NCBI RefSeq assembly: GCF_001272835.1
Contig: NZ_CP010546.1
Coordinates: 120,001 to 152,000, forward strand
Direction: 5' to 3'
Length of the DNA stretch: 32,000 nt
Source of the DNA: Mycoplasmoides pneumoniae FH
GTDB lineage: Bacteria > Bacillota_I > Bacilli_A > Mycoplasmatales > Mycoplasmoidaceae
In this document: positions 7,365 to 28,730 of the stretch, one piece after another
Numbering within the stretch: the first letter of the stretch is position 1
Layout: each line of letters begins with the position of its first letter
The notes under the pieces: model-generated
Told to the model about the DNA's origin: nothing
Database searches by the model: none
What the model saw: the letters and a program-made list of their open reading frames with translations, nothing else
Translations under genes and position numbers: made by a program

Positions 7365-9056
7365 TCCCACTTCTCCCCCACGCTTTCCCGTTTCTCCACC
7401 GGGTTCAACCTCGCGGGGGCACTCCTCGACCAGGTGTTGGATTATATTCCCTGGATTGGGAATGGGCACAGGTATGGGAATGATCACCGGGGTGTGGATG
7501 ATATAACCGCGCCTAAAACCGGCGCGGGGTCGTCCAGCGGAACTAGTACGAACACAAGTGGTTCGCGTTCCTTTCTCCCGACGTTTTCGAATGTCGGCGT
7601 CGGTCTCAAAGCGAATGTCCAAGCCACCCTCGGGGGCAGTCAGACGACGACTACGGGGAAAGATATTCCCAAATGACCCACCCTCGACCAAGCCAACCTC
7701 CAGCTCTGAACGGGGGCGGGGTGAAGGAATGATAAGGCTACTGGGAATAACACCTAAGGCAACGAAAACCACACCAAGTTCGCGAGTGCTACGGGCACGG
7801 GCCAGCAGCAGGGTGGTTCTTCAGGTACAACTAATTCCGCGGGGAATCCCGACTCGTTAAAGCAGGATAAGATTAGTAAGAGTGGGGATAGTTTAACCAC
7901 GCAGGACGGCAATGCGACCGGTCAACAAGAGGCCACCAACTACACCAACCTCCCCCCCCAACCTCACCCCCACCGCTGATTGACCGAACGCGCTGTCATT
8001 CACCAACAAGAACAACGCGCAGCGCGCCCAGCTGTTCCTGCGCGGCTTGTTGGGCAGCATCCCGGTGTTGGTGAATCGAAGTGGGTCCGATTCCAACAAA
8101 TTCCAAGCCACCGACCAAAAATGGTCCTACACCGACTTACAGTCGGACCAAACCAAACTGAACCTCTCCGCTTACGGTGAGGTGAATGGGTTGTTGAATC
8201 CGGCTTTGGTAGAAACCTATTTTGGGACGACGCGTACGTCTAGCACTGCGAACCAAAACAGTACAACCGTCCCCGGTATCGGTTTTAAAATTCCCGAACA
8301 AAATAATGATTCCAAAGCCACCCTGATCACCCCCGGGTTGGCTTGAACGCCCCAGGACGTCGGTAACCTCGTTGTCAGTGGCACCACGGTGAGCTTCCAG
8401 CTCGGCGGGTGGCTGGTCACCTTCACGGACTTTGTCAAACCCCGCGCGGGTTACCTCGGGCTCCAGTTAAGTGGCCTGGATGCCAGTGACAGCGACCAAA
8501 GGGAGTTAATTTGGGCCCCCCGGCCCTGAGCGGCCTTTCGTGGCAGTTGGGTCAACCGGTTGGGCCGCGTGGAGAGTGTGTGGGATTTGAAGGGGGTGTG
8601 GGCGGATCAAGCTCAGTTGGCCGCGCAAGCAGCTACAAGTAGTGCCACCACCGCAACAGGGGCTACCTTACCGGAACACCCGAATGCTTTGGCGTACCAA
8701 ATTAGCTATACCGACAAGGATTCGTACAAGGCTTCCACTCAAGGTTCGGGTCAAACCAATTCCCAAAACAATTCGCTCTACCTCCATTTGATTAAACCTA
8801 AGAAAGTCGAAAGCACGACCCAACTCGACCAGGGCTTAAAAAACCTGTTGGACCCCAACCAGGTTCGCACCAAGCTGCGCCAAAGCTTCGGTACAGACCA
8901 TTCCACCCAGCCCCAGCCCCAATCGCTCAAAACAACGACACCGGTGTTTGGAGCCATGAGTGGTAACCTCGGCAGTGTGCTTAGTGGTGGGGGTGCTGGA
9001 GGAGCAGGCAGCACCAATTCGGTGGACCTCTCCCCCGTTGAACGGGTGAGTGGGTC
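7365..9056 (+). pseudogene. RepMP2/3 copy (silent paralogue of the C-terminal half of the P1 adhesin gene), interrupted by a TAA and a +1 frameshift
   Basis: Translation [34 protein letters not shown]...[20 protein letters not shown]...[20 protein letters not shown]...[11 protein letters not shown] is colinear with the remembered P1 sequence. Frame 3 runs to about 7959 with a TAA at 7755-7757, then frame 1 after a C8 run at 7952-7959. No start codon or promoter. GC-rich. Confidence 0.9.
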
Positions 9057-9425: not shown

Positions 9426-9977
9426 ATGAAAGAGAAAATTCCGTTTTATAACGAAAAAGAATTCCATGACATGGTAAAAAAGACCAAAAAGGGCACTTTT
9501 TCGGGATGATACATCATTGACAAAGATAACAAAAGTGTGGAATTCTCTGGCAGTTTTAACAGACAATTTAAACTTAACAAACCGGTTATACCAGTGAACA
9601 CGGAATACGTAACGCGTAAAGAATTTAACGAATATAAAGTTTCAAACGACCAACGGCTTACAAAGATTGAAACCACTTTGGCCGCCCAAGGTGAACAAAT
9701 CAACAAATTGACTCAAACTGTTGAAAAACAAGGCGAGCAAATCAATCAATTAGTTCAAGTTGTGCTTCTTCACGGTGAACAAATCAACAAATTGACTCAA
9801 ACTGTTGAAAAACAGGGCGAGCAAATTAAAGAACTTCAAGTGGAGCAAAAAGCTCAGGTTGAGCAAATTAAAGCTCAAGGAAAACAAATAAAAGCTCAAG
9901 GAAAAACGCTTAAGTCGATCCTACAAGCACTTGGAGGAATAAATAAACGCTTGGACAAAATTGATCCACCTAAATAG
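9426..9977 (+). CDS. DUF16/UPF0134-family coiled-coil protein, 183 aa
   Basis: Strong SD aaaggagg lies 8 nt upstream of the [34 protein letters not shown]...[10 protein letters not shown]...[21 protein letters not shown] heptad repeats match the remembered M. pneumoniae DUF16 family. One UGA codon joins to track ORF 9537-9977. Confidence 0.9.
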
Positions 9978-9998
9978 TTTTTAGGCTAATAACAAAAG

Positions 9999-10041
9999 TG
10001 CCAGCAATTAATTTTATAAAGCTTATTTGCTGGTATTTTTA
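9999..10041 (+). terminator. Rho-independent terminator after the DUF16 gene
   Basis: 9-bp stem tgccagcaa/ttgctggta followed by ttttt. Homologous to the terminators at 14875 and 15327. Confidence 0.75.
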
Positions 10042-10059
10042 TTCACAACCAATAAACAA

Positions 10060-10340
10060 ATAAAAAGCCATCCACCGCGAGGTGAACGGTAGACGGCTAA
10101 AAATTTTTAATGATTTTGAAAACTAACGAAAAGTGTTAGTTTGAGTTGTAAAGCAGTTATGAATGTTTGTTCCTTTAAAAATTTGTTTGTTGTTTAGCTA
10201 AATATGTGCTGAAAGCCATTGCGTTAACATAAATAAATTAAGACATAAAAAATAAACACATTAATCAAATAAGTGTGGGAACAGAAAATCAGGCTTTCAA
10301 CACAAAATTTTCGTTTTTCTGCTCCCACTAAATAAATTGA
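10060..10340 (+). repeat. Structured dispersed repeat, copy 1 (diverged, longer middle); probably RepMP1/SDC1-related
   Basis: Shares aaaaagccatccacc..aggtgaa.gg.agac.gct, the hairpin aaactaac..aaag.tgttagttt, and the terminal ctgctcccactaaataaattga with the copies at 13538 and 15390. Confidence 0.75.
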
Positions 10341-11749: not shown

Positions 11750-13535
11750 ACCTCACCCCCTACACGCCCTTTACGACACCGCTCAATGGGGGGCTGGATG
11801 TCGTGCGGGCCGCCCATTTACACCCCTCATACGAACTCGTGGACTGAAAGCGGGTGGGACAGAACAAGTTGGTGGCGCTGGTCCGCTCAGCGTTGGTCAG
11901 GGTGAGGCTTAATGATGGGACGAGTTCGGATTCCAATACCACCACTGATGGGGCGCTTACGTTTGACACGAATGAAAGTCAAAAAGCTTTAGGCTCCACG
12001 GACACGCAGGGTTCCGGGTCTAACTCCCAAGACTTCGCCAGCTACATCCTCATCTTTAAAGCCGCGCCCAGGGCCACGTGGGTGTTTGAACGGAAGATTA
12101 AGTTGGCGTTGCCCTACGTTAAAAACGAATCGGGAGCAGGGGACTCCACCACAACTAACAGTGGCTCCCTCTACAAAACCCTCCAAGACCTCCTCGTCGA
12201 ACAACCCGTGACCCCTTACACGCCCAATGCGGGGTTAGCCCGGGTGAATGGGGTTGCTCAGGACAAGGTGCATGGGTTGGAGTCTGGGTGAGACAACCAA
12301 CGTTCCCAAAAAAACCTCACCAACAACCCCGGACCCAAAGCCGTCACCGGCTTTAAGCTCGATAAGGGCCGCGCGTACCGGAAGCTAAATGAAGCTTGAC
12401 CGGTGTATGAACCCCTGGATTCGACCAAGGAGGGGAAGGGGAAGGATGAGAGCTCTTGGAAAAATTCGGAAAAAACAACGGCGGAAAATGATGCCCCGTT
12501 GGTGGGATCAACCGGGAGTCAAATGGCTTCTAGTACCAGTTTGGGCAATGTTGGGGACACCACTGCCCTAACTCCACTTTTAAGAGGTGCTACTACTACT
12601 ACTACCGTCCAGCTAAAACAAACAGATTCTAACAGTCAAGATCAACAAAAATTCCAAAAATATTTAAACACCGCCCAGGCCCTGCACCAGATGGGGGTGA
12701 TAGTGCCAGAACTTAGCCAAGGCGGTTGGCAAAGCCAAACAGCGCGGCACAGTTCCACCCGGGGACTACAGTCAGCCGGGGCCAATCGTGGCGCTAGTTT
12801 AGCGGCACGCACCACCACAACTGTGGGGGTGGGTAGAAGAGATTCCACTTCCACCACCTTGGAACTACCAAACGTCATCACCCAGCTTTATCATACCTCC
12901 ACGTCCCAACTCGCTTACTTAAATGGCCAGATCGTTGTGATGGGTTCAAACGCGGTACCGAGTTTGTGGTATTGGGTCGTGGATGAGCGAACCACGTCCG
13001 GGAGGGCGACTTGATGAGCGAAGACACATTTGAACTTCGGCACTGAAGTTCAAAAAAACTTCGTCGAAAACCAGTTGGGGTTTAAATCCGAAGACAACTC
13101 CAACACCTCCTTGACGAACTTCAAGAGTCAAGGCTTAACTCAGCCAGCTTACTTAATCAGTGGCCTTGACGTTGTGGCCGACCACCTCGTCTTTGCGGCC
13201 TTTAAAGCGGGCGCGGTGGGGTATGATATGACGACTGATTCGAACGCTTCGACCTACAACCAAGCGCTCACCTGGTCGACCACGGCCGGGTTGGACAGTG
13301 ATGGGGGGTACAACAACCTGGTGACGAATACTGCGGGGTTAAACGGTCCGATTAACGGCTTGTTTACCCTGTTAGACACCTTTGCCTATGTGACCCCGGT
13401 GAGTGGGATGAAAGGGGGGAGTAAGAATAACGAAGAAGTGCAAACGACCTACCCGGTCAAGTCCGACCAAAAGGCCACCGCCAAAATTGCGTCCTTAATT
13501 AATGCTTCGCCCTTAAACAGTTATGGGGATAATGG
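11750..13535 (+). repeat. RepMP5 copy (silent paralogue of the P40/P90 ORF6 gene); uninterrupted ORF once UGA is read as Trp
   Basis: Frame 1 is open from 11731 to TAG 13627-13629. Translation LTPYTPFTTPLNGGLDVVRAAHLHPSYELVDWKRVG...AWPVYEPLDSTKEGKGKDESSWKNSEKTTAENDAPLVG...LDVVADHLVFAAFKAGAVGYDMTTD...ASPLNSYGD is colinear with the remembered Mgp-operon protein 3 (P40/P90). No ATG start. Confidence 0.9.
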
Positions 13536-13537
13536 CG

Positions 13538-13727
13538 ATAAAAAAGCCATCCACCTAAGGTGAAAGGCAGACAGCTCCAAAATATTTTTGACTATTGGAA
13601 AACTAACAAAAGCTGTTAGTTTGATGTAGAGGCAAAACTATGAATTTACTAAATTTATTTAAATCAGCGGGAGCAGGCTCGTTTTTTCAACACAAGTCAC
13701 TCTACCTGCTCCCACTAAATAAATTGA
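13538..13727 (+). repeat. Structured dispersed repeat, copy 2
   Basis: Nearly identical to 15390-15580, with only a handful of mismatches. Contains hairpins aaactaaca/tgttagttt and gggagcagg(c)/(a)cctgctccc. Fused directly to the end of RepMP5. Confidence 0.85.
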
Positions 13728-14095
13728 GACAGATTTTCAAAGTAGCCAAAGAGTTTGAATATTTTTGCAATTTGGGTTTACAACTCCATCTAACTATTAG
13801 TAGGGTTTTCACTTTTGAAAATTTTTTTGGATTAATTTTGGCACCCCGCCTTTTTTAAAGGCATTTAAGAGATATAAAAGAACAACTCATGTTTCTAGAT
13901 ACTTTCAAAAGATTTTTCGGGTAACTTAGATCACCTTTAATGTTGTTGTGGTTGGAGTTGATTTGGTTTAAATGGCAAAGGTTATGGTAAAGGTTTTTGG
14001 CACCTTTCTTTTACTTGTGCAATTCATTTATTAGAAGGGCAACAAATGGTCTTTTTGAACTAATCAGTTGTTGCCTAGCTTTATTTATTTAAAAA

Positions 14096-14671
14096 ATGAT
14101 GAGTAAAAATAAATTCTTTACCATTACTAAAGAACAGTACAGGAAGTTTACACGCAATAAAATTGAACTTCTTTTTAAGGTCCAATGTACCGAAAAGAAA
14201 AAGGGTAAACGTAGGTTCAAAATATTTCAGCAAGTCGAGGATAAACCAAAACCACCAGTTAAAATAATTGAAAAGGAATCTAAGGGACCGGAAGAACCAA
14301 AGGATCCTGGTATTAAAAATGGACCTAAGGGTCCCGGTGGACCAAAAGGACCTAAAAAGCCACCTGTTCCCGATGATCCTGATACACCAGATGTTCCTAA
14401 AGGCCCCAAAGAACCAGGCGGTTCAAAAGGTCCAGGTGGTCCCGATGATCCTAATGGAGGAAAGAAGAAAGTGCCTAAACCAGATAAGTATGTAACCCAT
14501 CGCGAGCTTGATGAGAAACTTACTGAGTTTCATGACAAGCTTATGGTAGAACTTGATGGTAAGTTTGCTACTAAAGCTGATTTAAAACGGGTTGAAGATA
14601 AAGTTGATGTTTTGTTTGAATTGCAAAAAACGCAAGATGAACAAATCAAGGTTCAAGGAAAACAAATCTAA
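14096..14671 (+). CDS. DUF16-related protein with a Pro/Gly/Lys-rich insert, truncated by an in-frame TAA (191 aa)
   Basis: Track ORF 14096-14671. The C-terminal part [18 protein letters not shown]...[17 protein letters not shown] aligns with the DUF16 coiled coil. The central segment is [59 protein letters not shown]. Confidence 0.75.
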
Positions 14672-14857
14672 CAGTTAACTGAAACTGTTCAAAAACAGGG
14701 CGAACAAATAAAGGAACTTCAAGTTCAGGTAAAAGCCCAAGGTGAAGAAATAAAAGAAATTAAAGTTGAACAAAAAGCTCAAGGCCAAACCTTGCAGTTA
14801 ATTCTGAAAGCACTTGAAGGAATAAACAAGCGACTAGATAATTTGGAATCGAAATAA
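14672..14857 (+). pseudogene. In-frame DUF16 C-terminal tail stranded after the TAA
   Basis: In the same frame after TAA 14669-14671: [61 protein letters not shown]. This parallels the C-terminus of the 9426 gene ([22 protein letters not shown]...[15 protein letters not shown]). Confidence 0.7.
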
Positions 14858-14874
14858 TCCCATTCCAAAATAAA

Positions 14875-14918
14875 AATACCAACAGTCAATCCTTAAAAAG
14901 TTCACTGTTGGTATTTTT
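14875..14918 (+). terminator. Rho-independent terminator
   Basis: 12-bp stem aataccaacagt/actgttggtatt followed by ttt. Confidence 0.8.
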
Positions 14919-14978
14919 ATTCACTCAAAAAATTCTTAAAATTTTTTTGTAATTTGTCGTCACTTCGAAATAACTGAA

Positions 14979-14994
14979 TCAATTTATTTAGTGG
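14979..14994 (-). repeat. Inverted copy of the motif CCACTAAATAAATTGA (left boundary of cassette 2)
   Basis: tcaatttatttagtgg is a perfect 16-nt reverse complement of 15565-15580. Confidence 0.7.
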
Positions 14995-15053
14995 AGGAGT
15001 AATTATGAGTAACTTTGAATTTTGATTAATCCTTCAGAAAGGAGGATTTGATT

Positions 15054-15320
15054 ATGAAAGATGAAACAAATATTTGTTCTCAATCTTTAAAAAGACCTTT
15101 AAGCGAAGACCAATTGATAGAGTATTTGAGTACTTATGAAATAACTTTATTTGAGGTTTATGCTGAGGATATGCTAGATGGCAATTGCAAAATTTATATA
15201 CATGCTAAAGGACGTCCAAAAGACCCAGATTGAAAAAGAAAGACTGATAAAAAATCTTTAGAAATTGAACGATATGTAAAGAAATTTATTAAGTTTTTAA
15301 AGAGAGAACAGAAAAAATAA
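15054..15320 (+). CDS. Hypothetical small basic protein, 88 aa
   Basis: Strong SD gaaaggagga lies 8 nt upstream of the ATG. Track ORF 15048-15233 extends through one UGA to TAA 15318-15320 and is followed by a terminator. The leader and start (aaaggagg..tatgaaaga) are homologous to those of the DUF16 gene at 9426. I recognise no family. Confidence 0.55.
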
Positions 15321-15326
15321 AAACAA

Positions 15327-15370
15327 AATACCAACAGTTAATTCTTAAAAAACGCGCTGTTGGTATTTTT
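15327..15370 (+). terminator. Rho-independent terminator
   Basis: 11-bp stem aataccaacag/ctgttggtatt followed by ttt. Confidence 0.8.
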
Positions 15371-15389
15371 ATTCAACGCAAATAAAGGA

Positions 15390-15580
15390 ATAAAAAAGCC
15401 ATCTACCCAGAGGTGAAAGGCAGACAGCTCCAAAATATTTTTGACGATTGGAAAACTAACAAAAGCTGTTAGTTTGATGTAGAGGCAAAACTATGAATTT
15501 ACTAAATTTATTTAAATCAGCGGGAGCAGGCTCGTTTTTTCAACACAAGTCACTCTGCCTGCTCCCACTAAATAAATTGA
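15390..15580 (+). repeat. Structured dispersed repeat, copy 3 (110 nt upstream of pheS)
   Basis: Near-identical to 13538-13727. Perfect 10-bp GC-rich stem gggagcaggc/gcctgctccc. Ends in ccactaaataaattga. Confidence 0.85.
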
Positions 15581-15690
15581 CAGGGTTTTATAAAAAAGCC
15601 AAAAGCTTTTAAAGTAACTATTTATTTGCAAATTAGTGCAAATATTCGTGTGCTATTTAAATTAACTATAGCACAATTAATAACAGTTGC

Positions 15691-19248: not shown

Positions 19249-20003
19249 ATGACAAACCAAAACCTACAAGACTTTCTGGACGGAGTTTTGTTAAAAGAGG
19301 AAAATTTAAACAAAATTACTGAAGTTTCCCTAGAAAAGGGATTACCGCACCTTTTAGATGAGGGTATCCATAACGAAGATAACTTTCAGATCTTTACGAG
19401 CCAAAAGATTGTGGCAGACATGATCAAAATGGTCGGTGTAAAGGAAATGAAAAATGTCCACACTACTGTTTTAGAACCAACTAGTGGTGATGGTGCTTTT
19501 ACTTGTGCTATTTTGGATTTACGTTTAAAAAACATTAAAAAATCAGACAGCTTTTAAAAGAAGCTTTAACCGGTCTATCCACCATTTATTCAGTTGAAAT
19601 TGACGAAGAGTTGGTTTGGTTACAACGCAATAACCTTTACTCTATCTTTTTAGCCTTCTTAAAAAAGCACGGTATTTTTAACGAAGAGTTAAGTCTCTTA
19701 GTGAAAAAAATCTTGATGATTAATGTGAGTTGGGGCGAGTTAATCACAGAAACCAAAGATAACGAGAACTTCGTTTGTAACTACGATTATTTTTTAAGGA
19801 ATAAAAAGACAAAGAAAAAACCCGCAAAGCATAAACATGAATTTCCAGAGGGTTTATTTTCCAATGGAGAAGGTAAGTGCAAAAGTTTGTTTGTTAATTG
19901 GTCATTTGCTGATGTCATTAATGAAATTGCTCATAATTCCAATTTTGACTTTGCCAAAATAGCAAAGATACCTGGTGAAATAATTCAATTTCAAATTAAT
20001 TAG
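19249..20003 (+). pseudogene. Small methyltransferase-like gene (SAM-binding motifs I/II, no clear NPPY) split by a -1 lesion in an A6 tract
   Basis: Frame 1 ORF 19249-19557 encodes [13 protein letters not shown]...[11 protein letters not shown]. Frame 3 is open from 19539 and encodes [25 protein letters not shown]... to TAG 20001-20003. One extra A in aaaaaa (19537-19542) would fuse them into ~251 aa. Confidence 0.6.
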
Positions 20004-21254
20004 TATGAGTCAAAATGGCGATAAAGACCACGAATTGATTCAGGGAAAGGTCAAAAGCAAAACTGAAATAGAAGATTCCGTTATATTGGATCAAGACACT
20101 TTGCAAGGCAAGGGTGAAGAAAAAACTAAATTAGATGAGTTGATTAGGTGAGAAGCCGAGAAAAACGACTTGCTCAAGTTAATTGATAACGTCGGTAATG
20201 ATGAAGTTTTTACTACTGTAGAAACTTGTCAAAGAATGCTTGACGATCTCTTTCCTCAAGACCATGAAGTTTGATCGAATCCGGACTTAAAGTGATTAAA
20301 TCCTTGTGATAAAAATGGTGTTTTCTTTCGTGAAATTGCGTTAAGGCTAGACAAAGGCTTGGCCAAAGTTATACCGGATGAATATGAACGCAAGAAACAC
20401 ATCATGACCAAGATGCTTTTTAGTATTGACTTAACTAAATTTACTAGCTTGATGGTTCGTCGTACGCTTTACTATTGCATTAAAGCTAACAAGCGTAAAA
20501 CTAGTGAAGATGAGGGCTGTGCAATTGCAAATGGCGCATGATTTAATAACGAATGCGGTAATGTTGTTAAACCTTACAAGGAACATTATTTCGACAAACA
20601 AGGAAAAAATAAAAAATGTAAGTTTTGTAGAACAGATGAGAAATTTAAATACCAACAATCTTCTTCAAATGAAAAATACGCCTATGACTTCATTCATTTA
20701 AATCCAAACGAATATGAAAGCTACTTTAAAACTAATTTTGGTGTTATGAAATTTGATGTAATTATTGGTAATCCACCTTATCAGTTAGCAAATAATCGTG
20801 GTGGTGATGCTGGTGATGGTAATGGAGCAAACCCCATTTTTCAAGAATTTATCTTAAGAGCACTTGAATTACAACCAAAATATTTAGCAATGATTGTTCC
20901 TGCAAGATGAATTAATTCCTCTGAAAAAGTTTTTCTAAAGTTCAGAGCAAAATTACAAAAATCAAATGGTTTTAAAGGAATTAATATTTTCTTTGACTCT
21001 AAACATTGCTTTCCAAACAGACAAATAAAAGGTGGTGTTTGTTACTTTAATTGACAGAATGGCTATGAGGGTCAAACACTCATAACCACTAAATCTTCAA
21101 AAAAAGGCAAACAAGAAGAAATTGAAACTTATAAGAGGGACTTTTTTGCACCTGTTTTAAACAATACTGAGCAAGTTATTTTCCGCAAAAAATTTAACAC
21201 GACATTTATAAAAAGGTAGATTCTTTTCACGCTAATGAATTAATCCATGCTCTC

Positions 21255-21268
21255 AGAGAGAGAGAGAG
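21255..21268 (+). repeat. (AG)7 dinucleotide tract followed by gcaacttagaag
   Basis: Read directly. It is the first of two repeat modules in copy A. Confidence 0.95.
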
Positions 21269-21300
21269 CAACTTAGAAGATCAGCCTTCTAATGGAATAA

Positions 21301-21328
21301 CACACACACAGAGAGAGAGAGAGAGAGA
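21301..21328 (+). repeat. (CA)5(GA)9 compound dinucleotide tract followed by gcaatttagaaa
   Basis: Read directly. It sits at the junction of the methyltransferase core and the C-terminal domain. Confidence 0.95.
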
Positions 21329-21905
21329 GCAATTTAGAAACTAATTTCGAAAGTTTCTCTAAACGTGTATCTGGCAAGGATCTGTTTAATTTAGCAACTA
21401 ATTTTTTTGATAAGTTTCCCTTAGTTGTAAAAGACAAAAAATTTCCTGGTGCAATTTCCATTTATAGCAGTTCGGGCGTAAAATACGCCGAACTGAAAGA
21501 GATCCCTAATATAAAGAATAAGGAACAAATTTCCAAATACAAGATCATTATGCCCAGAATAACTGGTAGCGGTGTGTTTGGTGATTACAGACCCAATATA
21601 AAAATTGTTGAACCTACTGGAGTTTGCACTCATAGTTATGTAGTTGCTTATTTAACGACAAATAAGTTTGAAGTTGAAAATGTCTTTTTATACATGAAAA
21701 CTAAATTTTTTAGATTTTTTGTCGAGATTTTTAAAGCAACCATCAATATCAGTTCACATAACTTCAAATACGTTCCCATTCAAGATTTTTCCCGTCCTTG
21801 AAATGACAGGGAGCTTTATCAAAAATACAACTTAACTCAAGAAGAATGACAATACATCGAGAACAATATTAGTTCTTATGAAAATTAGCTTTAAAATTAA
21901 GGAAC

Positions 21906-24900
21906 ATGAAATTTAAGCTTAATTTTCACGAAAAAATCAACCAAAAAGATTGCTGACAATCTCTAATTGATCACAAGGAACGTTCCTACTCATTAGACTT
22001 CGTTAATAATACGGAAAAGGAACTACCACTTATCTATGGATACGAAGTAAAAGACTTTGAAAATCACGGGGTTAAAATTGGTTATACAACATGTAAACCG
22101 TCTGAGAAAATTCAATCAGCGATAGAAGAACGTATCCTTTCACAAGAAAAAGAATTTCGCTTTTTAGATGAAAATATAGAAAAGATAGAGGAAGTTAAAG
22201 TTATCTTTTGAGCTATTGCCATCAATGAAAAGGATGAATCATTCAAGGATTATTCACTCCATTCATTTATTAAGGAAAAAAACTTATTAAAAGAATCGCA
22301 AGCTGGCGGTGAATGGTTCATAGTTGATGAAAATAAGGATAAGTTTGAATATCTTAGCCAAATTTTTAGACAGTTTCGCGCACCTTTTCTTTTTAAAAAT
22401 AAGGAAATTTATACACCTAGAAAAGAGCAAGCCGCATGTGTTGAAGTGTTAGAAAGATACTTTCAAGCCAATCCCGAAAACGGTAGGTTTTTAATGAACT
22501 GCAAAATGCGGTTCGGTAAATGTTTCACCTTGTACTCTTATGCACAAAAGAATAACATTAACAAGATTTTGATCCTAACGTTTGTTCCAGCTGTCGAAGA
22601 ATCTTGAAAGGATGATTTAAATCACATTGAAAAGAATTACAAATTTTATACCGATGATGATTTGCAAAAATCTAATTTTGATTTAAAGAATCAAAACGAG
22701 CCTTATGTAGTCTTTTTATCACTGCAAAACGTCTTAGGTAAACAAAGAATAGATGGCGCCAAAACTGATTTTGATAAAGAGCGAATTAGTAAGCTACAAG
22801 AGATTGATTTTGATTTAATTGTTTTTGATGAGTACCACTACGGAGCCAACAAAAAACGAACCCAAATCAAAGTTGAAAAAGTCAATAAAAAGATTGATAA
22901 TCCAGAACAGCAAGATAATCAAGATGATGCTGAGGAAGAATTGGCAAGTACTTTTAAGTTAAAAGACATCAAAAGTAAATTTCAATTTTCATACAAACAA
23001 TTAGTTTGTCTGTCAGGTACTCCTTTTTCCTCTTTAAGAAATAATGAGTTTTCCAGTAAAGATCAGGTGTTTACTTATTCTTACTTTGATGAACAGAAGG
23101 CCAAATCAGCAGAAAATCACCCACTCAAATTAGGGCAATACGGAATATTTCCGGAAATGAATATTTACTGTTTTGAATTGGCGGAAATTTTTACTGCACA
23201 AGAACAAGAAATATTCATAACTCCAGGTAAAGGTAAAAATAAGTTACCTGAAATTAGTTTTCGAAAGCTGTTTCAAACGGAAAACGTTTCTAAAGAATCA
23301 AGCAAACCAGTTTACAGATTTGTAAATGAAAACCTGGTTGAAAAGCTTATAGATTCTTTAATTGATAAACGTAAAGGTTTTAGCCACACACCTTTAAGTT
23401 GGGAAAACATTGACAAGCATAAGCATTCCTTATTAATTTTGCCAACTAGAGTTGCTTGTTTTGCGTTGGCCAATTTACTTAAAAATCACTGGTACTTTGA
23501 AAACAATGATTTTCAAATTATCAACATGTCAGAGAGCCAGTTTGGTAATGGCAAAAAAGCTTTAATTGAGCTTAATAAACACTTAGATGAAGCTAAAAAG
23601 ACTAATAAAAATACTTTAACTATTACTGTAGCTAAATTAACTATTGGTATTACAGTTAAAGAGTGATCGACAGTATTTTTCTTGAAGGATTTAAAGGGTG
23701 CTGAATCTTATTTCCAAACGATTTTTAGAATCCAAACTCCATATATAAAGAACTGTAAAAATCTGAAAGAAATTTGTTATGTTTACGACTTCAACATGTA
23801 TAGGTGTTTGGAAGTTACTAACGAGTATTCAAAACAAACACAAACAGACCCTAAATTTAGTGCTAGTTGATTCCAAAACTTAGACAAATTTTTACCTATC
23901 TATTTAGTTAGAGGCGATGAAATTCAAAAGACAGATCCAGAAATATTGCAGAAGTATGAGTACTTCATTATGGACAAGCGTGCATTCTCTACAAGATGAA
24001 TGGATGAAAGTAACATTATCGACATAGATGTACTTTGCAATGTTGGGCAAGATGAAGATGCGCAAAAAATATTGAAAAAAATATTAGCTCATAAAAAATT
24101 TAAATCATCCAAAAAGAAGCGAGAGTTTGAAGACGTTCATTTGGAAAAAAGTCCAAAAAGTGAGGCATTTAGTGAAGGCGTTCGCTCTGGTAAGGATTAC
24201 GCCGCTGAACAAGGTAATGTTTTAGAAGAACTTGAAAATTTCTGAAACTTTAACCAAGCATTAGAACAAAAAGCAAAAGCTGAATTTCAACAAAAAAACT
24301 TTGATGATAATGAATGAAACAATTACAAAAAAGGGTTTAATTTTGGAGTTAATAAGCATTTTGAAGATAAAGTTTCCATAAAGAAAATTGTTCAGAATAA
24401 AATCAAAGACTTTAAAAAAAGAAAAGGAAGAACAACTTCAACTTTTAAAAAATGAAAATGGTTATATTTCTGATGAGAATAACTTAAAAAAGCTAAGAGA
24501 TTTAATTAAAGAATATGTACAAAACAGAAGCAACATACCTCCAGAATTAGACTGATTTTTTTACCGAGACCGTTTTATTCAGCTCTTTGAAAAGAGTTGT
24601 TACCAGCATTTCAAAAAGAAGACTTTAACTGAAGAACAAAAAGAGAAAAAGAAAAAAGTTAATGACAACTTTGATAGTTTAATGCATACATGGGCACGTG
24701 TTCTGCACTTTCTTTATGTATCTGTTTATAGAGAAAAAACTTTAAGAGATGTGTTGAATAAAACTGATCCCAAAGTTTTTTCAGTGGCAGTCGGAATTGA
24801 AATGGATGAGTTTTCCAAAATCCAAAAATTTTTTAAAGTGGAAAATATGAATAGACTCATCGAACAGTTTAGTTTTAGAGAAAGTGTTAAAACTGAAAAC

Positions 24901-24969
24901 ACAGAAAAATCACAGTATAGAAACAGTTTCAATTGATTCGGTTTTGGCCCCGATAGTTTAAAGAGCTAA
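21906..24969 (+). pseudogene. GIY-YIG/T5orf172-like domain + SF2 (DEYH) helicase, Res-like protein, ~1020 aa if an A7 frameshift is corrected
   Basis: ATG 21906 follows aaggaa. Frame 3 runs through track ORFs 22662, 23682 and 24000 (joined by UGA) to TAA 24480-24482. Frame 1 is open from 24382 to TAA 24967-24969. Motifs: LIYGYEV..VKIGYTT...LHSF...GGEWF; helicase I-like MRFGKCFT, II VFDEYHYG, III LSGTPF, VI-like YFQTIFRIQT. Changing A7 (24414-24420) to A6 fuses the two frames. Confidence 0.75.
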
Positions 24970-24985
24970 ATTTCACATTTTTAGT

Positions 24986-26811
24986 ATGAACAAAAATAGT
25001 GGTAAAGACTACGAATCGATTCAAGGTAAGATTAAGAGTAAAGCTGAAATAGAAGATTCAGTTATATTGGAAAAAGAAACTTTGCAAGGCAAGGGTGAAG
25101 AAAAAACTAAATTAGATGAGTTGATTAGGTGAGAGGCCGAGAAAAATGACTTACTCAAGTTAATTGACAACGTCGGTAATGACGAAGTTTTCACTCCCGT
25201 AGAAACTTGTCAAAGAATGCTCGATGAGCTCTTTCCTGAAGATCATGAAGTTTGATCAAATCCCGATCTCAAGTGATTAAATCCGTGTGATAAAAACGGA
25301 GTTTTCTTTCGCGAAATTGCGCTAAGACTTGATAAAGGATTAACCAAAATTATTCCCGACGAATATGCCCGCAAGAAGCATATTATGACCAAGATGCTTT
25401 TTAGCATTGGCTTAACTAAATTTACTAGTTTGATGGTGCGTCGCACGCTTTACTATTGCATTAAAGCTAACAAGCGTAAAATCAGCGAAGATGAGGGTTG
25501 TGCAATTGCAAATGGCGCACGATTTAATAATGAATTTGGCAATGTTGTTACCCCTTATAAAGAACACTATTTTGGAAAAGAATCGAAAAGCAAAAACTGT
25601 CACTTTTGTGGGACAAATAAGAATTCTAAATATGTAAATTCTATGACTGAAGAAAAGTATGCCTATGACTTCATTCATTTAAATTCGGATGAATATGAAA
25701 ACTACTTTAAAACTAATTTTGGTGTTATGAAATTTGATGTAATTATTGGAAATCCGCCTTACCAGCTATCTAATGGTAGCGGTTCTGATGGCAATGGAGC
25801 CAAAGCAATTTTTCAAGATTTTGTTTTAAAAGCAATTGACTTAGAACCAAAATATTTAGCGATGATTATCCCAGCAAAATGAATGATTTCTGCTGAAAAT
25901 ATTTTTTTAAATCTAAGAGATAAATTAAAGAAAAATAAAGGTATAAAAGAAATTAATATTTTTTTCGACTCTAAAGACTGTTTTCCAAAGAGAGAAATAA
26001 AAGGTGGCATTTGTTACTTTATCTGGCAGAATAACTATCAAGGTAAGACTCTTATAAATACCAAATTTTCAAAGAAAGGAAAAAGCACAGAGATCGATAG
26101 TTCTAAAAGAAACTTATTTGTTTCCGTTTTAAACAACACTGAACAAATCATTTTTCGCAAAAGGATTTGACAAGACATTTACACAAAGATTGATTCCATC
26201 TCTGCTAGTGAAATGAAGAACACACACACACAGAGAGAGAGAGCAATTTAGAAGTTAGATTTCTTAATTTCTCTGATTACGTTTCAACGCAAAAATTCTT
26301 TAATCTAAGAAGTAATTTTTTCGATAAATTTCCTTCGATTTTGAAAGCAGAAAAATTTCCCGGTTTGATTGCAATTTATGGAAGTCATTCGGTTATTAAA
26401 CACGTGGATATTAAAGATATTCCGCAAATAAAAAATAATGAAGAAATTGCTAAATACAAAATTATTGTTCCACACGTTTATAGCCGTGGCAATGGAACTT
26501 TTGGAAATTACAAACCAAAAGTAAAAATTATTAAACCTAATGAAATTTGCACCGAAACTTATTTAGTGGTATATCCCACCGAAAGTAAAGTTGAGATTGA
26601 AAACGTCGCTTCTTATATGAGAACTAAATTTTTCAGATTTTTAGTTGAAATTTTTAAGGATTCTATTAACACAAATTCTCAAAATTTCAAGTTTATTCCT
26701 CTACAAGATTTTTCACGTCCTTGGAACGATAGAGAACTTTATGAAAAATACGGTTTAACACTCGAAGAACAGCAATACATCGAGGCGAACATAAGTGCTT
26801 ACGAGGACTAA
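24986..26811 (+). pseudogene. Gamma-class N6-adenine DNA methyltransferase, copy B; out of frame only at the (CA)n(GA)n tract
   Basis: Frame 2 from 24986 to 26251 gives 421 aa with [26 protein letters not shown] and [12 protein letters not shown]. Frame 1 is open from 26209 to TAA 26809-26811 (C-terminal domain ...TKFFRFLVEIF...PLQDFSRPWNDRELYEKYGLTLEEQQYIE). Removing one dinucleotide gives a single stop-free ORF of 607 aa. Confidence 0.85.
26221..26242 (+). repeat. (CA)6(GA)5 compound dinucleotide tract followed by gcaatttagaag
   Basis: Read directly. It is positionally equivalent to 21301-21328 in copy A but the unit numbers differ. Confidence 0.95.
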
Positions 26812-26966: not shown

Positions 26967-27117
26967 CTTTTATTACTAGTGGTTTTACACATTTTTTCAC
27001 TTAACAAAAAGTTTTAAAAAACACCAAAATTGCCACCAGCTAGCAAATCCAACACATAAAGAAAAACGTTCTTTTAAGGCTTATTAGAATAAGGGTAGAT
27101 TATTCATTAGTTGTTGT

Positions 27118-28730
27118 ATGCTAGATAAATTACTCCAGAAATTTCGAGACCAAAAGAAGCCCGTCTTCCACAAAGAAGAGGGCTACTGGGAAATTAGTGC
27201 CTTGCGGAAATGGGCAGCCATTTTAATAATTGCCTTTGGAGCTGGCATTATTTACATTGTGCCCTACTTTGCCTTCTTTCAGTTTAAGACAGCAGTAGCT
27301 AATGTAACGGGAGTGGAGCCCAACAGAATCTCCCTTCTCTTAACTGCTTACGGGATTGTTTCATTGCTGTTTTATATTCCTGGTGGTTGGTTAGCTGACC
27401 GGATTTCAGCTAAAGCGCTGTTTTCGGTATCAATGTTTGGTACTGGCATTATTACCTTCTGGTACTTCTTAGTTGGTTTGAAGGGCATAGTGTGGATTAC
27501 ACCCAACTAGTTATTATCCACGTCCTGTATGCCCTTAGTACGGTCTTAACCTTCTGGAGTGCCTTCATTAAAAGTATTAAGTTATTGGGTCCAGCGGATG
27601 AACAAGCGAGGTTGTATTCCACATCTGAAGGATCACGCTACTTAATCCAAGTAATTACTGGTTACATTAGTGCTGGTTTGGGTGCTATTGTCCTTATTAG
27701 TACTCCCTTTCTCATTTACAAAGCACCAACTGCTGCTGACCCTAAAAACTTAGCTTCTTCCTCAGGGATCTTCTTTGCCTTACTGTTTTATGCCATTTGT
27801 TATGTGTTAGCTGGTTTACTGTCACTGTTTTTTTTACCAGGAAAGTTCTGGGAAAAGCGCAAGATTTACTTGGAAGATGAACGAATTGAATACTTTAACC
27901 CTGTGGACCAGGCTTATCACATCTTTAAATCGGAAGCAGAATTAGAAGCCTTTAAGAAACATAACACTAAGGTTTTTTGAACGAAGGTATGAACTGATAC
28001 CAAAGAAACTTTGAGTTCTACAAGCGTTTGGTTAATTGCCTTTCTGATCTTCTTTATTATGAATGTGTACCAAACGATTGCTAACTTTGGTGCTAACATT
28101 TTGGAATCGCTAGGACTAGAGGCAGCACTCTCCCCAACTTTAAGTAATACCTATATCTATGGGATTCCGGTGTTAGGGGCAATCTTTTCTGGTTTGATTA
28201 ACAAAAAGTTAACTAAATCAACCGCTAAAAGTCTGATTGTGCAAGCCTTGTTTGTCATTTTGGGTACCTTAGCCTTTTTAGTAATAACACTAGCTTCCCC
28301 AGCCAAACCAGAAACTGGTGCATTTAACCAAGCTACCTTGTGAATAGCATTTGTGGTGATTTGCTTCATCATGTTCTTTATTGGCGCGAACCGTTCCATT
28401 TTTTGGAGTACGATCACAGAACTGAAAGTCAATAAGGAAATAGTAGGACTGGCAGTTGGTTTTATTTCGATTATTGGTTTTTCCAAAGATGTGTGGTTAA
28501 GTCCCTTACTGACTGGTACTACTAACCAGTTCATTGTCAAAAACAGTCAGGGTACCTCGTTTTACAGCCAGCAAGCCTTGGTAGCCTGAGCCATTTTTGC
28601 CCTAATTAATGCTTGTTTAGCACTACTAGTGACTTACATGATAGTGCGCAAAGTGAAGTATGGCAAAGTGTGAGTTAACCCTAAATTTAAAAAAGTCTTT
28701 GCACTAGGAGAACAACAATATGGACACTAA
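27118..28730 (+). pseudogene. MFS-type transporter split by a frameshift near 27489-27495 (~536 aa if repaired)
   Basis: Frame 1 from 27118 to 27510 (stop TAG) contains the MFS loop motif GGWLADRISAKA. Frame 3 is open from 27414, and track ORFs 27492, 28011 and 28353 join via UGA to TAA 28728-28730. Multiple hydrophobic helices on both sides of the shift. The sequence gtgtg at the junction suggests a 2-nt insertion. Confidence 0.75.

Follow-up and report, generated by a model that had tools for sequence, protein, structure and literature searches.

Methylases whose genes are controlled by simple sequence repeats are established in Haemophilus, Neisseria and Helicobacter, to which a Type IIG enzyme in Campylobacter can be added. 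For dinucleotide repeats the accepted threshold is five units, and Mycoplasma pneumoniae is named in the same survey only as an example of disease (Atack et al., 2018). A mycoplasma case is M.MmyCI of M. mycoides, which is on and active with a tract of AG10 and off with AG12.

M. pneumoniae, one of the major pneumonia pathogens, encodes very few regulators and has been regarded as genetically static. Its genome has been described as extraordinarily stable. Active methylation systems known in the species number just two, both from the methylome of strain M129, in which only two motifs were found, assigned to enzymes other than the ones discussed here. In the M129 methylome paper the genes MPN107-MPN111 are regarded as putative or without activity, and mpn107 and mpn108 showed no activity when cloned in E. 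coli. One study found the genes of this group, except mpn109, to be identical in M129 and in the ST3 strains it examined. The only repeats described for M. pneumoniae in the searchable literature are the 12-bp in-frame repeats of hsdS.

A sequence-only reading of a 32-kb stretch of DNA (here called the window) had proposed that compound dinucleotide tracts in two methylase paralogues form a candidate phase-variation switch, one not known to have been described at this locus. The latter stands for the searchable literature, in which we found no description (subscription journals and REBASE notes fall outside that search). The former, as we argue below, has to be split between the two genes.

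Results

Two interrupted methylase genes in one locus

In-gene TGA codons in conserved genes, and proteins that match Mycoplasmoides pneumoniae records, identify the window as M. pneumoniae DNA, and we translated its 19.2-26.8 kb region with genetic code 4 (Mycoplasma). The region contains two paralogous Eco57I-family adenine-methylase genes, copy A and copy B, interrupted at the same point, each by a pure (AC)m(AG)n tract; all the features of this region are on the plus strand. The locus begins with a gene at 19249..20000 that shows methylase motifs X and I (FTS...) and encodes 251 aa in other isolates. Neither Pfam nor the 323-aa gene at the head of the homologue cassettes described further on gives a match to it. 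A T5-to-T4 deletion (19551-19555), common only to the window and L016 (GCA_001296525.1), splits it into ORFs of 102 aa and about 130 aa.

The N-terminal methylase part of copy A follows at 20005..21219 (404 aa, with an NPPY motif and a TAG end at 21217-21219). Its 404-aa protein cluster contains the UniProt entry 'Uncharacterized adenine-specific methylase MPN_108', and it can be aligned to copy B, the paralogue in which the Pfam Eco57I domain is found. Copy A then carries a cluster of fixed lesions (21187..21197), a first tract, A1, which is (AG)7 at 21255..21268 followed by caacttagaag and a 20-nt spacer, a second tract, A2, which is (AC)5(AG)10 at 21300..21329, and a C-terminal domain at 21330..21888 that is in frame 1 and free of internal stops. 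Between the two copies lies a gene for a ResIII-domain helicase (21906..24482, 858 aa, Pfam ResIII), separated by a fixed frameshift in an A7 run (24414..24420) from its own C-terminal remnant, a 193-aa ORF in another frame (24382..24969). Against a 993-aa homologue, the 858-aa ORF aligns to residues 16-704 and the 193-aa ORF to residues 831-992. The N-terminal methylase part of copy B occupies 24986..26251 in frame 2 and yields a 421-aa product (OFF); the frame switches at the tract, (AC)6(AG)6 at 26220..26243, and the C-terminal domain, likely a target-recognition domain, is in frame 1 at 26244..26811. Since mpn111 is given in the M129 methylome paper as a duplicate of mpn108, the N-terminal part of copy B is most likely MPN111.

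Elsewhere in the window, the gene for an MFS transporter 3' of copy B (27088-28727) is broken into overlapping ORFs of 130 aa and 412 aa; its T8 run (27828-27835) is T7 in L008, where the second ORF is broken again, another lesion linked to a homopolymer. DUF16-type coiled-coil genes at 9687-10144, 13538-13750 and 14652-15613 share dispersed repeats of 70-94% identity and have tandem repeats of 42 and 84 nt inside them, on which recombination could possibly act. Further simple repeats are (CTA)5 (12590-12604) and a C8 run (7952-7959), which lies in a reading frame of the region at about 7.3-9.1 kb that is rich in G+C and proline.

The tracts lie where the sequence-only reading had placed them, the (CA)5(GA)9 it had given for copy A being (AC)5(AG)10 at 21300-21329 in another register. 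Their five sub-tracts are the sole dinucleotide runs of at least four units in the 32-kb window. Runs of at least five units number 5, against 0.145 expected and a maximum of 2 in 200 dinucleotide-preserving shuffles of the window, and (AC)6(AG)6, (AC)5(AG)10 and (AG)7 all sit in ORFs and reach the five-unit threshold for contingency-locus repeats. The frames that had been read in copy B are correct: the upstream part, in frame 2, stops at TAG 26249-26251, and the downstream domain is in frame 1. Deleting one AG unit opens, as had been said, a stop-free ORF of 607 aa from ATG 24986; the addition of two units, for which the same length had been given, produces 609 aa instead. In the productive frame the tract does encode the repetitive linker that had been foreseen, (Thr-His)n(Arg-Glu)n.

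These frames follow a simple rule, in which the sum m+n of (AC)m(AG)n sets the reading frame of copy B. In two of the three phases translation meets a stop 2 or 4 codons past the tract and ends in a product of 421-428 aa without the C-terminal domain (OFF). In the third, with totals of 11, 14 or 17 units, it reads through the (Thr-His)n(Arg-Glu)n linker and gives a full-length product of 607-613 aa (ON).

Copy A cannot be restored by its tracts

A change of frame at the tract had been claimed for both genes. It is present in copy B, and absent from copy A, both halves of which are in frame 1 in the window. The homologous reading path of copy A (frame 3) requires, as proposed, one further unit in A2 together with the repair of other lesions. 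Among these are the loss of one nucleotide from the A6 run at 21187-21192, found in 15/15 genomes, and a TAA at 21195-21197 in place of the TGA (Trp) of copy B; this codon of copy A is TAA in most genomes and TGA in L001. In the window, the break in copy A also includes four frame-1 stops, and the proline of the FTP motif has been lost from copy A. Because of the fixed 1-nt deletion, accompanied in most genomes by the TAA, copy A is OFF at any tract length. Judged by its reading frames, it is dead in all 15 genomes and no tract length would turn it on, and its tracts slip without coding consequence. Copy A therefore does not alternate between intact and truncated states as a contingency locus does, its extra lesions being fixed.

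An internal duplication of about 45 nt in copy A created A1 and A2. We found no sign that recent gene conversion is the cause of the tract common to both copies, as the two copies differ in their 5' flanks and agree over only 10 nt on the 3' side. The copies are also more distant than the 85-90% identity once estimated by eye, as we measured 75.7% for DNA (1909 nt) and 68% for protein. With a dS of about 0.8-1.9, the difference in unit number between paralogues, which had been taken as a signature of slippage, is not evidence in itself; the evidence for slippage has to come from the comparison between isolates.

Tract lengths differ between otherwise identical isolates

Counting repeat units across isolates had been suggested as a way to check the tracts, and the count supports slippage: in 15 M. 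pneumoniae genomes (the window and the locus from 14 other genome records, with L002 and L005 being the same and treated as one), the flanks are identical in 15/15 and all three tracts differ in length. A1 ranges from 6 to 13 units, A2 from (4,3) to (9,9) and copy B from (5,5) to (10,7), where the figures in brackets are AC and AG units. The window has 7 units in A1, (5,10) in A2 and (6,6) in copy B, and is OFF. Its closest relative, L016, with which it has a private frameshift in common, has 7, (5,9) and (6,6), and is also OFF; the two are one AG unit apart at A2, their longest tract. L006, with 11, (8,11) and (7,9), is OFF as well. Three genomes are ON, namely L008 with 12, (9,8) and (8,6), L009 (CP010548.1) with 9, (5,10) and (10,7), and L010 with 11, (8,9) and (7,10). 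All others are OFF with (5,5) in copy B. Their A1 and A2 are 13 and (7,7) in L004, 7 and (7,10) in L002, 7 and (8,9) in L003, and 7 and (9,9) in L007; A2 is (4,3) in L001, L023, L024, L025 and L026, with A1 of 10, 6, 8, 6 and 12 units respectively. L001 has many private differences and could have been a poor assembly, an explanation we ruled out since four further genomes of the same lineage share its features.

This variation stands out from a nearly invariant background. In a 7.9-kb alignment of 11 sequences, just 18 substitutions and 3 single-base indels are found outside the three tracts. The window, L006, L008, L009 and L010 have 0 substitutions among them in the 7.9 kb and five different copy B alleles [the window's being (6,6)]. 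L003 and L007 differ at A2 with 0 substitutions over 15.2 kb and, more generally, different tract alleles are found between isolates that are 0-3 substitutions apart in 15 kb. Length matters too. Sub-tracts of five units or less are invariant, as seen for (4,3) at A2 in five genomes and (5,5) at copy B in nine, and the longer ones change almost every time among the 15 genomes. Variability that increases with tract length is what slipped-strand mispairing, through which the tracts would gain or lose 2-nt units during replication, is expected to produce. Mollicutes, M. pneumoniae among them, are not known to have MutS/MutL mismatch repair, an absence that would favour slippage. The tracts are hypermutable simple-sequence repeats that undergo length-dependent slipped-strand mutation.

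Dinucleotide runs are prone to miscalls, especially in nanopore-only assemblies, so the differences could in principle be errors of sequencing or assembly at low-complexity DNA. We find this scarcely credible, because the differences reach up to 10 units with the AC and AG parts changing independently, because they recur across several projects independent of one another and in complete genomes, because the short tracts are perfectly reproducible in nine genomes, and because protein records from different submitters show the same spread. We also searched the supplements of PMC5081376 (contigs and MUMmer coordinates), where the copy B flank is found in eight contig files; it had no match in the same-patient pairs.

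In-frame and out-of-frame alleles of copy B

Copy B is uninterrupted in L008 (609 aa), L009 (611 aa) and L010 (611 aa). To these can be added the 76 distinct proteins that cluster with the copy B protein at 90% identity, whose C-terminal tails decode uniquely to tract alleles. Public data hold 16 copy B alleles, of which six are in frame, (6,8), (7,10), (8,6), (8,9), (9,8) and (10,7), and ten out of frame, (5,5), (6,4), (6,6), (7,9), (7,11), (7,12), (7,14), (8,5), (8,7) and (9,7). Five of the ON proteins are recorded in the public collection as called full-length proteins, and the OFF protein of the window (421 aa) is identical to a public protein record. The intact and the truncated state of copy B are thus both natural, with 609-611 aa when ON and 421-428 aa when OFF. 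When five OFF alleles were repaired in silico all of them opened to 611 aa, and the phase of the tract is therefore the sole lesion in copy B.

The states are not spread evenly over the species. (AC)5(AG)5 is found in the major lineage, which contains the M129 protein accession AAB95694.1 and is uniformly OFF with this allele, and in four further genomes, nine in total. Where the tract is of this length copy B would be effectively locked OFF, and switching would act in the sub-lineage in which the tract has expanded beyond about 6+6 units. Among the genomes examined, the long, variable alleles are confined to those that keep the 858-aa helicase ORF, an association that is confounded with shared ancestry.

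In-frame copy B is annotated inconsistently, either as the full protein of 609-611 aa or only as a C-terminal ORF of 200-202 aa that starts at a Met just 5' of the tract, as seen for example in L009 (11986-13821). Surveys based on annotation would miss the ON state.

Protein family and structure of copy B

Once repaired, copy B shows one Pfam domain, Eco57I (PF07669, E = 1e-20), at residues 138-333, and the order FTP, motif I, NPPY is seen in the alignment of its motifs. A search with the repaired protein returned thousands of single-protein matches; among those listed are Eco57I-family proteins of 547-590 aa that are 36-46% identical, mostly spanning 90-96% of the query, and the best listed match from outside M. 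pneumoniae is 41% identical. A contig scan of genomes with one query protein found one Clostridiales locus and none in other mollicutes. There is no NCBIfam family for the methylase or the helicase, and the PDB, searched by sequence, returned no relative. With Eco57I as its only Pfam domain, and with matches to the Type II and Type IIG methylase profiles of PADLOC, the protein falls outside the Type III Mod family. On the REase_MTase_IIG profile (1359 positions) the methylase matches 999-1359 and the ResIII protein 179-595, so that the modules of a fused Type IIG polypeptide are here in two adjacent genes. As to a nuclease domain, Pfam finds ResIII alone in the helicase proteins of 858 aa and 993 aa, their N-terminal 150 residues having been assessed by Pfam only. 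From these profile matches, the pair of methylase and helicase looks like a split helicase-methylase restriction enzyme.

The nearest solved folds are those of CamA, M.TaqI, M.BseCI, BrxX and BpuSI, and the first three have the same two-part layout as copy B. In these enzymes, adenine methylases of the gamma class, recognition of the DNA target falls to the C-terminal domain. By analogy, the C-terminal domain of copy B is a probable DNA-recognition module, and the truncated product would lack it. The AlphaFold model is weak overall (mean pLDDT 61.8), with 25-55 in the N-terminal domain and 82-94 across most of residues 430-610. The linker encoded by the tract, at residues 414-429, has a pLDDT below 50. 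Together with its surroundings, MKNTHTHRERERESNLEVRFLN, it makes up a 22-residue insertion that is absent from 13/13 aligned homologues and falls at the poorly conserved junction between the methylase part and the C-terminal domain.

The position of the tract raises the question of whether it mainly tunes the length of this linker, as is thought for the 12-bp repeats of hsdS, rather than turning the gene ON and OFF. In-frame alleles do vary in linker length (609 to 611 aa) and in their content of Thr-His versus Arg-Glu, and variation in hsdS repeat number is known in M. pneumoniae. However, with a unit of 2 nt two thirds of the changes destroy the frame, 10/16 copy B alleles are out of frame, and the linker is an insertion that homologues lack and that is predicted to be disordered. 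We consider linker tuning very unlikely as the main role of the tract.

Signs of selection and signs of decay

A more serious competitor is neutral microsatellite instability in a decaying restriction-modification locus, in which copy B would be non-functional even in frame and changes of the tract would have no phenotype. We regard it as a minority possibility, albeit a substantial one. Variability alone is no proof of function, as the dead copy A is as variable as copy B. In addition, the share of in-frame alleles (6/16) is about one third, as expected without selection on phase. Codon 179 of copy B (25520-25522) is CGA (Arg) in every M. pneumoniae copy B sequence read, at an invariant position that is Trp in 13/13 homologues and TGA (Trp) in copy A; from the alignment, W179R could impair the enzyme even in frame, and the structure model is silent on its effect because of the low N-terminal pLDDT. 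The helicase partner has decayed. The frameshift at its A7 run, a run that shows no length difference among the 11 aligned sequences, cuts off roughly the final 160 residues in every genome examined. Two lineages have further breaks, one being Q537* (CAA to TAA at about 23514) in three genomes (L003, L007 and L002, the last the same as L005) and the other, in the major lineage, a frameshift at about codon 166. That commonest lineage is, moreover, fixed OFF, and MPN111, the copy B protein, was not detected by mass spectrometry in M129 (methylome paper, Table 1).

The last of these points loses its weight when one considers that the M129 lineage is OFF, so that absence of the protein is expected there. 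The inactivity of the mpn107 and mpn108 clones fits with truncated products being inactive. Against a locus in plain decay, the genomes examined show no lesion in copy B beyond the phase of its tract, but several in copy A and in the helicase gene. Copy B keeps 111/132 of the residues that are invariant among homologues, and its catalytic motifs (FTP, motif I and NPPY) are intact. Between copies A and B, dN/dS is close to 0.15 (0.16 in the N-terminal part with a dS of 0.77, and 0.14 in the C-terminal part with a dS of 1.87), and from this low ratio, together with the same compound tract at the same site in both, it follows that tract-bearing genes were long kept by purifying selection. Finally, the tract is cleanly inserted into a linker that tolerates it, and in both OFF frames a stop comes directly afterwards, within 2-4 codons, which is the usual design of a contingency locus.

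Discussion

Our comparison of isolates divides the phase-variation switch that had been proposed for both paralogues. The proposal survives for copy B, with its hypervariable tract, a phase that is its sole lesion and natural ORFs of 609-611 aa, and it fails for copy A on account of the fixed deletion. The tract of copy B is likely, with a probability that we put at roughly 0.6, to be a stochastic and heritable ON/OFF switch of a putative DNA methylase, which possibly extends to what remains of the helicase partner. Its reversibility within a clone is an inference, as are an enzymatically active ON form and whatever consequences would follow for methylation, expression or restriction.

A stronger version of the switch is that the sub-lineage carries a working phasevarion. 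The in-frame copy B would then be a third active N6-adenine methylase, adding a new m6A motif genome-wide and altering expression, or DNA uptake or restriction via the helicase remnant. We hold this as tentative and rather doubtful. It would further imply, and here our confidence is equally low, that the commonest lineage lost the switch through contraction to (AC)5(AG)5. No methylome of an ON isolate was found in the searchable literature. Isolates whose locus is the same except for an ON or an OFF allele are already public: CP178943.1 with (8,6), CP010548.1 with (10,7) and GCA_054661895.1 with (7,10) are ON, and the nearly identical CP179190.1 with (7,9) and CP017335.1 with (5,5) are OFF.

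Such a switch would make cells, and isolates too, heritably heterogeneous in a way that typing and comparative genomics have overlooked. The three tracts are also ready-made and highly discriminating markers for outbreak isolates that are nearly identical.

How does this locus compare with what is known? Homologues in genomes from Firmicutes metagenomes sit in conserved three-gene cassettes, which consist of an uncharacterised protein of about 320-330 aa (Type II methylase profile), a methylase of the Eco57I family (550-558 aa) and a ResIII helicase (about 990-1000 aa). The methylase is 37-43% identical end to end and the order of methylase, then helicase, has been kept. The cassettes differ in that the repeat-coded insertion is found in 0/13 aligned homologues, and in M. 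pneumoniae two methylase copies flank the helicase gene. Within the species, the 12-bp tandem repeats of hsdS are likewise found in restriction-modification genes and vary in copy number by strain and passage (Xiao et al., 2015), but they are in frame, add 4 aa per unit and are thought to alter specificity, with no on/off effect.

Among mycoplasmas, M.MmyCI (M. mycoides subsp. capri) resembles copy B in having an AG repeat inside a methylase ORF and an OFF-frame stop directly after it, and the GA[5-25] mod genes of Mycoplasmataceae also differ in repeat number between strains (Atack et al., 2018). Those mod genes are of Type III, whereas the methylase studied here is of the Eco57I family and gamma class, with Type II and Type IIG profiles, and its tract is a compound (AC)m(AG)n in which both parts vary and which lies before the C-terminal domain. 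The same distinction applies to the phasevarions with which the locus had been compared (ModA, ModB, ModD, ModH and ModM, from Haemophilus, Neisseria, Helicobacter and Moraxella). The comparison is right about the mechanism, a methylase switched by a repeat, and does not extend to the family, since these are not Type III mod genes. Like copy B, phasevarions have an N6-adenine methylase with a simple repeat within its ORF, and their restriction partner is often inactive, which leaves an orphan switching methylase. They differ in methylase family and repeat type, and in that one M. pneumoniae lineage is seemingly locked OFF.

A further case is found in Campylobacter jejuni, where Cj0031 is reportedly a single polypeptide in which nuclease and methylase are fused, with a poly-G tract as its switch, unlike the M. 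pneumoniae methylase, a separate protein of 550-610 aa encoded beside a ResIII helicase gene. Cj0031, a phase-variable Type IIG restriction-modification enzyme (PMC4889913), is related to Eco57I, stands outside Types I and III and is controlled by an intragenic repeat, as we propose for copy B. Taken together, what we describe is a known mechanism in a new enzyme family and a new species, built on a compound tract.
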